Shown here: piece by piece, positions 18,912-29,510 of the stretch
How the letters are laid out: the number at the start of each line of letters is the position of its first letter
How positions within the stretch are numbered: position 1 is the stretch's first letter
Assembly (NCBI GenBank): GCA_000004695.1
Contig: CM000151.3
Coordinates: forward strand, 1,504,001-1,568,000
DNA length: 64,000 nucleotides
DNA from: Dictyostelium discoideum
Lineage: Eukaryota
Direction: 5' to 3'
Notes under the pieces: model-generated
Databases searched by the model: none
What the model was told of the DNA's origin: nothing
The model's input: only the letters and a program-made list of their open reading frames with translations
Position numbers and translations under genes: made by a program

Positions 18912-20243
18912 TTAAAATAATCTTGGATCATTTTTTCTTTCCCAAACAGGGTAACGATTACGATTACAATTATAAAACCATGGTAAAATAGCGACTTCTT
19001 TTTTAAAGAAATCATCCATTGTGCTAATATCTTGAATTTTATAAGCGTGGTCAGATTTTGTTTCTAATAAACGAAGTTCTAATTTTTGAATATTTCCATT
19101 TTGAATGTCATCTGAAAAATTTTTAACATGAGTTTCATTTTTGATACCACATTCAGTACATGATAAATATTTCACCATTTGGAATGGTAAATAACCATAA
19201 TGAGTCATATGCATTCCACCCAGCATATAGTGACCCGAAGTACCACGATTTCTAGATGGTGCTTTAGTTGTTGATTTTGCTCTTTTCAATGTATAAAAAG
19301 TCGGATCACCAAGTGTATATGGATTATTTGGTACTGAATAAAAAGGTTTAAAAACTTGATTAATTGGACCATACGGGAACCAAATACCAATATCAACAAT
19401 ATCAACACTTTTTCTAAATTGGCAATTCTTTAAATAATGTAAATTAATTCTTGCACTGATTTCATCGGTATCGCCAAACCCAATAATATCATCATCACCA
19501 TATTGGTTTGTTCTCTCATTCCAGTATAAAAACTTTTGCCAACGACGAGTTTCCTGATAACTTTCTGCATCGAATAAACCTTTACCATTCTCTTCATCAG
19601 TATCATCTAAAATTAAATGTACAACTTTATCTTGAAATTTAATGAAACGATCTTGAAATTTAACATGTTCCCAAATCAATGGTTTTTTCATTTTATGATA
19701 ATGTGTTACTGTTGATTCGAGAATAAAGAAATGGTCAATAACATCATATAATTCATTTAAATGAACTTCTAAAACATCAATATCGAAACCAATTTGTACC
19801 ATGTGTCCGATTTTAACAGGTTTATCACGTTTACCTGAGAATACTCTTGGATATTTCCCACAAACAGAATTATTAATAATTGGTAAAGGTTCAGGTTTAC
19901 ATGATTCATTAATTGGCACTAATGGCGGTTCAATTAAATAGTTTGATAATGTTAAAATCAACATTTGTGAATATTTATCTGTATTTTCAGTTTTACCAGT
20001 TCTTGCTGCTGCTTTAAAATCCTCCCATGGGAAATTATTCATGTCCTGTGTAAAATTCTTTCCTCTAAATTCATAATCTATATTATAATTTGATACTTGT
20101 TGTTTGTTATTTGATAAGTGATATATATTTTCTGTTTGGTAAACTTTTATAGATTGAGATAGATTTGGTAACAAATAAATCGTGTAGGTCGCCACAAAAA
20201 TTAGACCAATTAAAACAACAATCCTTGCAATTGTGTTGTTCAT
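18912..20243 (-). CDS. Glycosyltransferase family 17 (GnT-III / MGAT3-like beta-1,4-GlcNAc transferase) type-II membrane protein, paralog 1, 443 aa, single exon.
   Basis: N-terminal TM anchor MNNTIARIVVLIGLIFVATYTIYLL. The catalytic region aligns to the MGAT3 blocks: FDIDVLEVHLNELYDVIDHFFILESTVTHYHKMKKPLIW matches DLLDVRFHELGDVVDAFVVCESNFTAYGEPRPLKF, and DDIIGFGDTDEISARINLHYLKNCQ matches DDVFIIDDADEIPARDGVLFLKLYDG. The C-terminus ...WFYNCNRNRYPVWERKNDPRLF is conserved. Confidence 0.8.
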   Translation of the reverse strand: MNNTIARIVVLIGLIFVATYTIYLLPNLSQSIKVYQTENIYHLSNNKQQVSNYNIDYEFRGKNFTQDMNNFPWEDFKAAARTGKTENTDKYSQMLILTLSNYLIEPPLVPINESCKPEPLPIINNSVCGKYPRVFSGKRDKPVKIGHMVQIGFDIDVLEVHLNELYDVIDHFFILESTVTHYHKMKKPLIWEHVKFQDRFIKFQDKVVHLILDDTDEENGKGLFDAESYQETRRWQKFLYWNERTNQYGDDDIIGFGDTDEISARINLHYLKNCQFRKSVDIVDIGIWFPYGPINQVFKPFYSVPNNPYTLGDPTFYTLKRAKSTTKAPSRNRGTSGHYMLGGMHMTHYGYLPFQMVKYLSCTECGIKNETHVKNFSDDIQNGNIQKLELRLLETKSDHAYKIQDISTMDDFFKKEVAILPWFYNCNRNRYPVWERKNDPRLF

Positions 20244-20937
20244 TATATTTTTTTTTTTTTTTTTTCTTTTTATTTTTATTTTTTTTTTTTTTTTTTCATA
20301 AAAAATAATTAAAATTTAAAAAAAATGCTATTTATATATATATATATAGATACCGAGATTTTTAAAAAACCAAAAATTTTACCACACTAAAACAATCGGA
20401 CTATTTCCAATTTTTTTTATTTATTTAATTTTTTAAATGATTAAAAAAAATTTTTTTTCCAATTTGCAAGAAAAACATTCACACTAAATTTCATAAAACA
20501 AAAAAACACTTTTTTTTTTTCTTTTTTTTTTTCTTTTTTTTTTTTATTTCTCCTTCAACTATTCACCAAAAAAAAAAAAAAAAACAAATTAAAAATCCAA
20601 AATATCTTGATGATGAGGGGGAATTTTTTTTTTTTTTTTCTTTTTTTTTTTTTATGAAATTCAAAAAAAAAAAAATAAATAAAAAATAAAAAATCGAACG
20701 AGTTCTTTGAAAACTGGTCCAAGTGTCTTTTGAAAGTGACTTTAAAATTCGAAAGGGTGGTTTTCACCAAGAGGCATTCAAAAATTATTGCTATTGTTTT
20801 TTTTTTTTTTTTTTCAAACCATTTCATACATCTTAAACGATTGTTGTTTTTTTTTTATCAAACCATTTCATACATCTTAAACGATTATTGTTTTTTTTTT
20901 ATTTTTTTTTATTTTTTATTTATTTATTTATTATATT

Positions 20938-28046: not shown

Positions 28047-28190
28047 GTCCAAACACTAACAAAAAAGGAAAAAAAACAAAAAAAATGGGTCAAATCCTTT
28101 TGTTAAACAATTTTTTTTTTTTTTTTTTTTTTTTTTTTTTTAAAAAAAAAAAAAGAGTTGTATTTTTATTTTATTAATTTTTATTAAATT

Positions 28191-29510
28191 TTAAAATAAT
28201 CTTGGATCATTTTTTCTTTCCCAAACAGGGTAACGATTACGATTACAATTATAAAACCATGGTAAAATTGCAACTTCTTTTTTAAAGAAATCATCCATAC
28301 TACTTAATTGACGAATTCTATGAGCATGATCAGATTTTGTTTCTAATAGACGAAGTTCTAATTTTTGAATATCACCTTTTCCAATATCATTTGAAAATAA
28401 GGTAATTTGATCCTCTCTTGTTATACCACATTCAGTACATGATAAATATTTCACCATTTGGAATGGTAAATAACCATAATGAGTCATATGCATTCCACCC
28501 AACATATAGTGACCTGAAGTACCACGATTTCTAGATGGTGCTTTAGTTGTTGATTTTGCTTTTTTTATTGTATAATAAGTTGGATCACCGAGTGTGTATG
28601 GATTACTTGGTACTGGGAAATCTGGATTGAAAACTTGATTAATTGGACCATATGGGAACCAAATACCAATATCAACCATATCAACACCTGATTTTAATTG
28701 ACAATTCTTTAATAAATGTAAATTAATTCTTGCACTGATTTCATCGGTATCGCCAAACCCGATAATATCCTCATCACTATATAGATTTGTTCTTTTATTC
28801 CAATCTAAAAACTTTTGCCAACGACGAGTTTCCTGATAACTTTCTGCATCGAATAAACCTTTACCATTCTCTTCATCAGTATCATCCAAAACTAAATGCA
28901 CCACTTTATCCTTGAATTTTAAAAATCTATCTTGAAATTTAACATGTTCCCAAATTAATGGTTTCAACATTTTATGATAATGTGTTACTGTTGACTCTAT
29001 TATAAAGAAATGGTCAACGACATCGTATAACTCATTTAAATGAATTTCTAAAACATCAACATCGAAACCAATTTGTACCATGTGTCCGATTTTAACAGGT
29101 TTATCACGTTTACCTGAAAACACTCTTGAATATTTTGATGTGCATACTGAATCGTCGATAGGTGGTAATGGTTCAGGTTGACATGATTCATCTATTGGTA
29201 CTAAAGGTGGTTCAATTAAGTAGGTTGATAATGTTAAAATCAACATTTGTGAATATTTATCTGTATTGTCTGTTTTACCAGTTCTTGCTGCTGCTTTAAA
29301 TTCTTCCCATGGGAAGTTATTCATATCATATGTAAAATTCTTTCCTTTTGCTTCATAATCTATATCTGCTATTGAAAATTTTGATTTAGGTCTATAATAA
29401 CTTATTCCACTACTATATACAATTTGATTTATGCTTGGAATAAAATATATCATTAAGGTTAATATACCTAAACCTATAAAAACTAATAACCAAATTCTAG
29501 TACGATTCAT
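28191..29510 (-). CDS. GT17 (GnT-III-like) type-II membrane glycosyltransferase, paralog 4, 439 aa, with no PT stem.
   Basis: TM MNRTRIWLLVFIGLGILTLMIYFI. The catalytic blocks and the C-terminus ...RYPVWERKNDPRLF are conserved. The first 20 bp of 3' flank are identical to those of the other three paralogs. Confidence 0.8.
   Translation of the reverse strand: MNRTRIWLLVFIGLGILTLMIYFIPSINQIVYSSGISYYRPKSKFSIADIDYEAKGKNFTYDMNNFPWEEFKAAARTGKTDNTDKYSQMLILTLSTYLIEPPLVPIDESCQPEPLPPIDDSVCTSKYSRVFSGKRDKPVKIGHMVQIGFDVDVLEIHLNELYDVVDHFFIIESTVTHYHKMLKPLIWEHVKFQDRFLKFKDKVVHLVLDDTDEENGKGLFDAESYQETRRWQKFLDWNKRTNLYSDEDIIGFGDTDEISARINLHLLKNCQLKSGVDMVDIGIWFPYGPINQVFNPDFPVPSNPYTLGDPTYYTIKKAKSTTKAPSRNRGTSGHYMLGGMHMTHYGYLPFQMVKYLSCTECGITREDQITLFSNDIGKGDIQKLELRLLETKSDHAHRIRQLSSMDDFFKKEVAILPWFYNCNRNRYPVWERKNDPRLF

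Follow-up and report, generated by a model that had tools for sequence, protein, structure and literature searches.

The window, i.e., the whole stretch of 64,000 nucleotides analysed here, belongs to chromosome 2 of Dictyostelium discoideum AX4 and contains four GT17 genes, which are the published four-member GT17 family of this species (Sucgang 2011, PMC3188802) and as such already known. We consider with good confidence that these genes constitute the complete GT17 family in the form of an old tandem array, which encloses a sulfotransferase gene, whose catalytic regions have been homogenised by gene conversion, and in which two members carry repeats in their stems. The array is real but largely ordinary, and the main finding adds little, because the genes are contained in the reference genome and the literature already names the family as probably responsible for the peripheral beta4-GlcNAc of D. 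discoideum N-glycans. Modest new points are the compactness of the array, the homogenisation of the catalytic regions, and an apparent defect of the sulfotransferase gene, which are useful for testing the published GlcNAc prediction.

All four GT17 genes are intronless and situated on the minus strand within 10.6 kb (Table 1). Four same-strand GT17 genes had been proposed by a first-pass annotation of the window, and all of them were recovered as ORFs at the positions given there, except for the start of p2: the mechanical ORF (24022..25509) begins at TTG, whereas the true ATG, as aligned with the other paralogs, yields the shorter gene listed in Table 1. The proposed identity of more than 80% across the GT17 catalytic blocks also holds, with 82.5-87.3% at the protein and 87.0-89.9% at the nucleotide level over the part that begins with the FPWE block and ends at the stop codon. 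The p1 protein is an exact match to AX4 EAL71290/XP_645228, p4 matches AX4 DDB_G0272170 at 100%, and the p2 protein is identical in D. discoideum strain ACTFIT. The genes are the same as those of Sucgang 2011, an identity that the first-pass annotation had not recognised, with two of the four (DDB_G0272170 and DDB_G0272276) matching AX4 exactly; the passages of that paper concerned with the family do not mention the single array, the concerted evolution, the Pro/Thr stems, or the enclosed sulfotransferase, and no GT17 gene list was found in the supplements of PMC3188802.

Table 1. Positions of the GT17 paralogs and of the parts of the sulfotransferase gene in the window.
Feature	Position	Strand	Description
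GT17 paralog 1 (p1)	18912..20243	-	443 aa; DDB_G0272276; ORF; Pfam PF04724 52.6 bits; short non-repetitive stem
Sulfotransferase exon 2	20938..21548	-	3'-PB MLRDPVDRVIS; C-terminal part of catalytic domain
Sulfotransferase intron	21549..21634	-	86 nt, phase-1, GTAAGT...ATAG; splicing restores frame
Sulfotransferase exon 1	21635..22896	-	from ancestral ATG (long window ORF from 22871); 5'-PSB LHLPKVGGTS; poly-Asn tract
GT17 paralog 2 (p2)	24022..25485	-	487 aa from ATG; Pfam PF04724 54.6 bits; stem with PTET units
GT17 paralog 3 (p3)	25992..27455	-	487 aa; Pfam PF04724 53.5 bits; stem with PTQT units
GT17 paralog 4 (p4)	28191..29510	-	439 aa; DDB_G0272170; Pfam PF04724 55.7 bits; short stem

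Concerning family membership, the GT17 assignment of the first-pass annotation stands: all four proteins score above the Pfam cut-off for Glyco_transf_17 (PF04724; 26 bits), the match being limited to profile positions ~68-197 of 348, and their homologues are named beta-1,4-mannosyl-glycoprotein GlcNAc-transferase. The closest relatives are GT17 proteins of protists, chytrids, and some arthropods with 40-50% identity, not MGAT3. Within the motif G-F-G-D-T-D-E, which presumably corresponds to the catalytic D-x-D of GnT-III, no substitution of G253, D254, or D256 (numbered as in p4) is seen in any of the four paralogs or in a set of 49 diverse homologues. The AlphaFold2 model of p4 (pLDDT 90.1) exhibits a GT-A-like fold; it begins with a helix at residues 2-23, behind which comes a stem modelled at low confidence, in agreement with type II membrane topology, and hydrophobic N-termini are present in all GT17 copies. 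A PDB sequence search with a GT17 paralog returned no match and hence no GT17 structure for comparison; a nucleotide-sugar-binding fold of GT-A type has, however, been proposed for GT17 (PMC12616123). In each GT17 protein, a short cytoplasmic tail precedes the signal-anchor helix, and a disordered stem leads from there to the GT-A-like catalytic domain, in which G-D-x-D-E is invariant; the four products are predicted to be type II membrane proteins of the Golgi.

With mammalian MGAT3 (GnT-III; beta-1,4-mannosyl-glycoprotein 4-beta-N-acetylglucosaminyltransferase), the founding CAZy member of GT17, the Dictyostelium proteins have in common PF04724, type II topology, and a GT-A-like fold that includes a D-x-D, and D. 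discoideum does make bisecting beta1,4-GlcNAc. They differ from it in that their alignment to the Pfam profile is limited to its central third, that the acceptors would be high-mannose instead of complex glycans, and that the predicted enzyme exists in four copies with Pro/Thr stems. In the relevant passages of PMC3188802, the four-member GT17 class of D. discoideum is described as having no counterpart in D. purpureum, a species without the fourth GlcNAc, and is predicted to add peripheral bisecting and/or intersecting beta4-GlcNAc. Bisecting GlcNAc is confined to D. discoideum (PMC11795075). According to published glycomics, intersecting GlcNAc is present in D. purpureum, where GT17 genes are absent, such that GT17 enzymes cannot be assumed to make the intersecting residue; Cavenderia has three GT17 genes but, again according to published glycomics, no more than 3 HexNAc per glycan, which sits against a GT17 role. 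Judged by family membership and the published comparative glycomics, transfer of beta1,4-GlcNAc to high-mannose N-glycans is the most likely activity of the GT17 enzymes, whereby UDP-GlcNAc would serve as donor and the bisecting, possibly also the intersecting, residue would be formed.

The order p4-p3-p2-sulfotransferase-p1 is kept in four species, including D. citrinum, D. firmibasis, and D. cf. discoideum. Three of the compared loci (L001, L002, and L004) exhibit the order PKS, GNAT, GT17, GT17, GT17, sulfotransferase, GT17, Las1, and the fourth (L003) contains the core of GT17, GT17, GT17, sulfotransferase, GT17 as well as the downstream genes. The N-terminal 42 amino acids are 76-100% identical between the orthologues of D. 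discoideum, D. cf. discoideum, and D. citrinum, but only 30-43% between paralogs. Because the same order is found in four species and each paralog has retained its own N-terminus, the array is old and not recent, its four copies predating the split of D. discoideum, D. cf. discoideum, D. citrinum, and D. firmibasis. Tandem duplication would have given rise to the four genes before these species separated, and a dictyostelid Sulfotransfer_2 paralog would at that split already have been situated between copies 1 and 2. The first-pass annotation had left the choice between recent duplication and gene conversion as the cause of the similarity. Young copies with too little time to diverge would account for the nucleotide identity of 87-90% in the catalytic regions and for the identical 3' ends; separate duplications in each species, however, would have had to rebuild identical order and stems, with the sulfotransferase in the same slot and copy-specific N-termini that are shared across species and not between copies. 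We therefore give recent duplication almost no probability and regard it as already refuted by synteny.

Evidence for gene conversion comes from several sides. Synonymous divergence (dS) among the AX4 paralogs amounts to 0.26-0.35, compared with 0.49-0.72 between orthologs of AX4 and D. citrinum, and is as low as 0.065-0.22 among the paralogs of D. firmibasis. In trees of the catalytic region (NJ with simple JC distance, ~1.1 kb), the four D. firmibasis copies are monophyletic with 100% bootstrap support, and p2 and p3 group together within D. citrinum (99%) as well as within the D. discoideum group (98%). Runs of identity exceed the length expected by permutation, e.g., between p2 and p3 with 30 variable sites (P=0.0005). 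Since paralog dS is smaller than ortholog dS and the catalytic regions cluster by species, conversion seems to extend over the whole catalytic region; the homogenisation suggested by the first-pass annotation is thus real but not confined to the 3' ends. Taken together, the pattern indicates that conversion keeps the catalytic halves of the four genes alike. Repeated conversion between the copies would have homogenised a stretch that starts near the FPWE block and ends shortly after the stop codon, and the 5' part (tail, anchor, and stem) would lie outside the conversion tracts, such that each copy has kept a separate identity there.

Purifying selection together with the extreme A/T codon bias of Dictyostelium might, in the absence of any conversion, also keep the paralogs alike, especially in the C-terminal 25 codons: the C-terminal 35 residues are invariant at the protein level, the last 75 nt vary at few sites even between species, and ortholog omega is low (0.10-0.17 for most GT17 pairs). 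Selection on the protein, however, can neither push synonymous divergence between paralogs below that between orthologs nor render the four D. firmibasis copies monophyletic, and the excess length of the identical runs is equally at odds with it. Moreover, within D. citrinum and within D. firmibasis, the last 75 nt contain species-specific substitutions common to all four copies, with no more than one diagnostic site per species backing conversion there specifically, and we consider selection and codon bias a very improbable substitute for conversion. It is a general phenomenon that gene conversion makes tandem paralogs evolve in concert while one domain escapes; the GT17 paralogs conform to it in that one part of the gene groups them by species and another by position, and we see no respect in which the pattern of this array departs from the standard.

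In AX4, the four paralogs do not differ in the last 75 nt of the coding sequence. The motif CCAAGATTATTTTAAAAT is found exactly three times, namely in p2 to p4 (0.28 expected by chance), and p1 has ...TTTTAATTAAA in its place. Past the stop codon, ~30 nt are common to p3 and p4 only, p2 shares ~6 nt, and p1 none. Of the stop context and 3' flank previously described as identical in all four genes, the identity at the end of the coding sequence and the motif in p2 to p4 were confirmed, whereas the deviating p1 and the minimal sharing beyond the stop codon make the term 'identical 3' flank' an overstatement. As regards future experiments, the position of the four genes within such a short distance means that one deletion could remove the whole family, and single GT17 knockouts are likely to be redundant because the catalytic regions are homogenised.

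The stems of p2 and p3 contain Pro/Thr-rich tandem repeats in the predicted lumenal part. Tandem Repeats Finder (TRF) reports period 12 at 25219-25359 (11.8 copies, p2) and at 27187-27309 (10.2 copies, p3), and each region includes five perfect copies of its unit, CCAACAGAAACT in p2 (PTET; 25320..25261) and CCAACTCAAACA in p3 (PTQT; 27257..27198). The first-pass annotation had already recognised different 12-bp repeats in these two paralogs and had proposed that the stems expanded independently. Both statements agree with the present data: the units differ, and neither exact 12-bp unit occurs in the orthologues of D. citrinum or D. cf. discoideum, which supports an independent and lineage-specific expansion. 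In D. discoideum sensu stricto only, slippage during replication would have added further length to the Thr/Pro-rich stems, with a different 12-bp unit in each of the two copies. Thr/Pro repeats of Dictyostelium proteins carry O-GlcNAc modification, and by their likeness to such repeats the stems of p2 and p3 might be O-glycosylated as well.

The Golgi-type sulfotransferase with PAPS motifs proposed between p1 and p2 is indeed present there, on the same strand and with two exons, and an intron in the matching position is found in four other genomes. The spliced catalytic domain reaches 43 bits with Pfam Sulfotransfer_2 (PF03567; cut-off 22), and the Gal-3-O_sulfotr profile remains just under its cut-off (26.8 vs 27). 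Both motifs listed in Table 1 align to the PAPS-binding motifs of HS6ST3 (5t03) and HS2ST1 (4ndz), with flHlpKvGGTs corresponding to FLHIQKTGGTT and mlRDPvdRviS to MLRDPVSRYLS; a C-terminal block also aligns, and the intact alleles of the Dictyostelium gene encode a protein of type II topology. Differences from these enzymes are the PDB E-values of just 0.003-0.085 and the long poly-Asn stem of the Dictyostelium protein, whose tract in exon 1 is detected by TRF at 22404-22610. The gene is predicted to encode an HS2ST/HS6ST-like PAPS-dependent carbohydrate O-sulfotransferase distinct from Kil1; to our knowledge, Dictyostelium lacks heparan sulfate. Kil1 (DDB_G0267630), the only characterised Dictyostelium sulfotransferase, is like the gene in the array an annotated or predicted membrane sulfotransferase of D. 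discoideum, but identity of the two is ruled out by the location of Kil1 on chromosome 1 (443514-444929); Kil1 is also absent among the sulfotransferase homologues listed.

In the AX4 window, the long ORF of the sulfotransferase has no ATG before residue 174, which the first-pass annotation had overlooked, and a complete reading frame with start codon and signal anchor, as is intact in the four other genomes (L001-L004), is not present. The ancestral ATG at 22896 is followed after 11 codons by a premature TAA (22863-22861, codon 12) and then by an insertion of 1 nt, an extra T within 22848-22839. From residue ~21 on, the translated sequence does not differ from the 623-aa product of the intact gene in ACTFIT, the one further D. 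discoideum strain compared (retrieved via p2 and its GNAT neighbour). With a nonsense codon and a frameshift in the region coding for the signal anchor, either the sulfotransferase would be inactive in AX4 or the reference is mis-sequenced. An error of the AX4 reference, with the gene intact in the real strain, is a serious possibility, though somewhat short of an even chance. It is favoured by the clustering of ~7 AX4-specific changes in 55 nt at the start, as opposed to none in the rest of the coding sequence (the other 1.8 kb), and by many other AX4/ACTFIT differences that are single odd bases in homopolymer runs; the changes at the start, however, are mostly substitutions (A>T, A>C, T>A) and not length errors of homopolymers. 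A homology search of a protein collection with the sulfotransferase yielded nothing above 72% identity and no exact match for six candidate versions. The same collection is also without the intact ACTFIT protein and without GT17 paralogs 2 and 3; as repeat-rich proteins seem to be missing from it, absence there says nothing about whether the sulfotransferase is a pseudogene.

According to the first-pass annotation, the array might be a co-regulated locus for the decoration of N-glycans, the sulfotransferase owing its place there to a shared N-glycan substrate and to joint regulation with the GT17 genes. Consistent with this are its place within the array, retained in four species, purifying selection on it (omega 0.24-0.41 between species), and literature reports that N-glycans of D. 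discoideum carry GlcNAc modifications as well as sulfate and that D. purpureum has sulfated intersected glycans. The four species, however, are closely related, such that the shared order may be plain inheritance, and the Cavenderia GT17 gene examined is solitary, without GT17 or sulfotransferase neighbour, the Cavenderia sulfotransferase of this family being located on another contig. Furthermore, no conserved 8-mer common to the upstream regions of the five genes was found in what is a weak test, the 5' end of the sulfotransferase gene is broken in the window, and loss of Kil1 alone abolishes the detectable mannose-6-sulfate epitope in laboratory strains (literature). The proposal of a co-regulated locus is not borne out by these results, and a functional module appears unlikely.

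A wider reading, which we consider still less likely and offer as speculation, is that the array constitutes the genetic basis of the bisecting GlcNAc specific to the D. discoideum group, with enzymes whose catalytic domains are kept interchangeable by conversion and which would therefore differ mainly in the length of the stem and hence in reach or in position within the Golgi, and that the enclosed gene encodes a second N-glycan sulfotransferase, active in wild isolates and knocked out in the AX4 lineage. If such a second enzyme was lost in the AX4 lineage, this would explain why deletion of Kil1 alone removes all detectable mannose-6-sulfate in laboratory strains. An apparent defect of the sulfotransferase in the AX4 reference, with the gene intact in another D. 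discoideum isolate, matters in any case for the reading of sulfation phenotypes of laboratory strains.

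Concerning the four GT17 genes, numbered here as paralogs 1-4 by rising window coordinate, the first-pass annotation described a real feature, and described it accurately: in a window with a G+C content of 14-35%, the four ORFs lie where it placed them (see table), all four pass the profile search that it proposed (Pfam Glyco_transf_17, 52.6-55.7 bits; cut-off 26 bits, with only profile positions ~68-197 of 348 matched), and they are indeed more than 80% alike. Between the FPWE block and the stop codon, i.e., in the catalytic region, identity among the copies is 82.5-87.3% for protein and 87.0-89.9% for DNA. 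The mechanical ORF of paralog 2 starts at TTG; translation from the ATG aligned with those of the other copies yields a protein of 487 aa. The array is the GT17 family already known from this model organism, paralog 4 being identical (100%) to DDB_G0272170 (AX4, chromosome 2) and paralog 1 an exact protein match to DDB_G0272276 (AX4). New are the picture of an old array being homogenised by conversion while its stems diversify, the correction of two points ('recent duplication' and 'shared flank'), and what looks like a defect, specific to AX4, of the enclosed sulfotransferase gene.

Features of the GT17 array and its neighbours (window coordinates)
Feature	Position	Strand	Remark
Paralog 1, GT17 ORF	18912-20243	-	ORF scan
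Paralog 2, GT17 ORF	24022-25509 from TTG; 24022-25485 from ATG	-	ORF scan
Paralog 3, GT17 ORF	25992-27455	-	ORF scan
Paralog 4, GT17 ORF	28191-29510	-	ORF scan
Paralog 2 repeat	25320-25261	-	five perfect CCAACAGAAACT (Pro-Thr-Glu-Thr) units
Paralog 3 repeat	27257-27198	-	five perfect CCAACTCAAACA (Pro-Thr-Gln-Thr) units
Period-12 arrays	25219-25359 and 27187-27309		TRF
Sulfotransferase ORFs	22871-21635 and 21548-20938	-	joined in frame across intron
Sulfotransferase start features	ATG 22896; TAA 22863-22861; extra T within 22848-22839	-
44-bp tandem repeat (x2.3)	20803-20902		96% match; just 3' of sulfotransferase stop codon
23-bp tandem repeat (x3.3)	27974-28048		92% match; downstream of paralog 4
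Las1-like gene	16760-18810	+	Pfam 154 bits; split over several ORFs
Las1-like repeat tail	18528-18671		TRF; Lys/Glu/Asn-rich
GNAT acetyltransferase	29902-30360	+	152 aa; divergent from paralog 4
Two large polyketide synthase genes	31421-49529	+	adjoin array

Strain ACTFIT of D. discoideum, D. citrinum and D. cf. discoideum share one gene order with the window: polyketide synthase, GNAT acetyltransferase, three GT17 genes, sulfotransferase, GT17, Las1. The D. firmibasis locus does not extend upstream of the first GT17 gene; its core of three GT17 genes, sulfotransferase and GT17 leads into the downstream genes seen in the other genomes. Over its first 42 residues, each copy matches its same-position counterpart in D. 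cf. discoideum and D. citrinum at 76-100% identity, whereas identity to the other copies of the same genome is only 30-43%. The conserved order and the position-specific N-termini show that the genes had been duplicated, and the sulfotransferase gene had arrived, before these species diverged, which excludes the recent duplication originally suggested.

The catalytic regions behave differently from the N-termini: in a phylogeny of the paralogs they cluster by species, as expected under conversion, while the N-termini cluster by position, which speaks against a recent origin. Neighbour-joining trees with 200 bootstraps unite all four D. firmibasis copies (100%), pair paralogs 2 and 3 of D. citrinum (99%) and join paralogs 2 and 3 of the D. 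discoideum group in a single clade (98%); when built from the 5' third of the region, they pair these two paralogs separately in D. discoideum (88%), in D. cf. discoideum (94%) and in D. citrinum (100%). At synonymous sites, the AX4 copies diverge less from one another (dS 0.26-0.35) than AX4 and D. citrinum orthologs do (0.49-0.72), and the divergence among the D. firmibasis copies is only 0.065-0.22. Difference-free runs exceed the permutation expectation in every AX4 pair, most strongly between paralogs 2 and 3 (30 variable sites, P=0.0005). Codon bias combined with selection on the protein was considered as the cause, but it cannot yield species-wise clustering at silent sites. Together with the species-specific substitutions in the terminal 75 nt, one present in each of the four D. 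citrinum copies, the other in each of the four D. firmibasis copies, these results bear the marks of the proposed gene conversion, acting across the whole catalytic region and not, as the term homogenised 3' ends would imply, on the 3' end alone. Judged from the sequences, its limits lie near the stem on the 5' side and from a few to ~30 nt beyond the stop codon on the 3' side.

The final 75 coding nt are indeed without any difference among the four copies. The identical 3' flank claimed for all of them is, however, short: beyond the stop codon, shared sequence extends for ~30 nt in paralogs 3 and 4 and ~6 nt in paralog 2, and paralog 1 differs right after the stop codon. The string quoted for this context is exact in paralogs 2-4 only (3 matches versus 0.28 expected by chance).

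Pro/Thr stems with 12-bp repeats of differing sequence were confirmed in paralogs 2 and 3, the two units differing at 3 of 12 positions. Thr/Pro-rich stems occur in paralogs 2 and 3 of all four species, so that the Thr/Pro richness as such is old, whereas the perfect 12-bp units are confined to D. discoideum proper (five units in both AX4 and ACTFIT) and were not found in exact form in the D. cf. discoideum and D. citrinum orthologues. Independent recent slippage, as proposed in the first pass, is the simplest account of these repeats. Thr/Pro repeats are known to be O-glycosylated in Dictyostelium, and by analogy O-glycosylation of both stems is plausible.

The gene between paralogs 1 and 2 proved to be a same-strand sulfotransferase with PAPS motifs, as annotated. 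It has a phase 1 intron of 86 nt (GTAAGT...ATAG), and its spliced catalytic domain scores 43 bits against Sulfotransfer_2 (cut-off 22) and 26.8 bits against Gal-3-O_sulfotr (cut-off 27). LHLPKVGGTS and MLRDPVDRVIS align with the PAPS-binding motifs of heparan sulfate 6-O-/2-O-sulfotransferases, as does a C-terminal block, with weak E-values (0.003-0.085). The gene is not Kil1, a characterised Dictyostelium sulfotransferase (DDB_G0267630), which maps to chromosome 1. Its D. discoideum relatives DDB_G0274515 and DDB_G0270564 are 55-58% identical. Another adjacent pair of such paralogs is located at a different D. discoideum locus (genes 005344 and 005346 of strain ACTFIW), comprising the DDB_G0274515 orthologue and a fourth type of 350 aa, which is the closest relative among the matches listed (72% identity).

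What had been overlooked is a lesion at the start of this gene, consisting of a stop codon and a 1-nt insertion. In ACTFIT, whose DNA matches the window at 99.57% identity over 21 kb, the gene begins with MNRIQFFKIVILIFVVSIVFLSTLILNK, by its sequence a typical short tail and signal anchor; the opening is near-identical in D. cf. discoideum and D. citrinum, with a close variant in D. firmibasis. The window instead reads ATG ATT AGG ATC CAT TTT TTA AAA ATT GAA ATT TAA, where the ACTFIT-like sequence of the region (22839-22896) is ATGAATAGGATACAATTTTTTAAAATTGTAATTTTAATT. Owing to the TAA and the extra T, the long ORF lacks an ATG before residue 174; the remaining protein shows no differences from the 623-aa ACTFIT protein. 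About seven AX4-specific changes, among them the nonsense codon, the inserted nucleotide and a newly created BamHI site (GGATCC), are crowded into 55 nt of the start region on the minus strand, with none elsewhere in the coding sequence, and the four other genomes mutually agree across the region. The change looks like either a fresh lesion of the laboratory lineage or a flaw of the reference. The searched protein collection is without the repeat-rich proteins (paralogs 2 and 3, poly-Asn sulfotransferase), though the assemblies call their genes; as even the intact sulfotransferase allele is missing from it, absence there says nothing on the AX4 annotation.

Sucgang et al. (2011; PMC3188802) describe for D. 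discoideum a 'four-member CAZy GT17 class' that D. purpureum does not have; they note that the N-glycans of D. purpureum are without the fourth GlcNAc, and they predict the class to be a bisecting and/or intersecting beta4-GlcNAc transferase. Hykollari et al. (2025; PMC11795075) report intersecting GlcNAc in D. purpureum and bisecting GlcNAc in D. discoideum only, and propose a correlation between GT17 and bisection, with the intersecting enzyme possibly drawn from another family. Based on these published presence/absence and N-glycan data, our best guess for the GT17 activity is UDP-GlcNAc:beta-mannoside beta1,4-GlcNAc transfer onto high-mannose glycans.

The suggested co-regulation of GT17 and sulfotransferase genes gained no computed support: no conserved G+C-containing 8-mer common to the five upstream regions was found, co-location is confined to a single group of closely related species, and the window's sulfotransferase gene is disrupted. 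Cavenderia fasciculata has three GT17 genes (56-64% identity); around the one examined, no GT17 or sulfotransferase gene lies within 10 kb, and the sulfotransferase is on a contig other than that of GT17. The conserved position and purifying selection (omega 0.24-0.41 between species for the sulfotransferase catalytic domain) keep co-regulation alive, at a low probability.

Among the matches listed, GT17 is patchily distributed: within Dictyostelia it occurs only in the D. discoideum group and Cavenderia, and beyond them the closest relatives, with 40-50% identity, are scattered over Rozella, chytrids, sciarid flies (Bradysia, Pseudolycoriella), the springtail Orchesella, trichomonads and Nannochloropsis.

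Between AX4 and ACTFIT, 92 alignment columns differ in window positions 18160-39542, mostly homopolymer lengths or lone odd bases in poly-A/T runs (e.g., 20619-20656, 25776-25791, 27661-27747), which suggests sequencing noise in one assembly. As to the neighbours, the GNAT gene keeps its place next to paralog 4 in ACTFIT, D. citrinum and D. cf. discoideum, and the Las1-like gene, presumably split by introns, is a conserved downstream neighbour in all species. Segments of the second polyketide synthase gene (~41434-48522) match the first (~33098-40549) at 95-96% identity, which makes the two another young or homogenised tandem pair.
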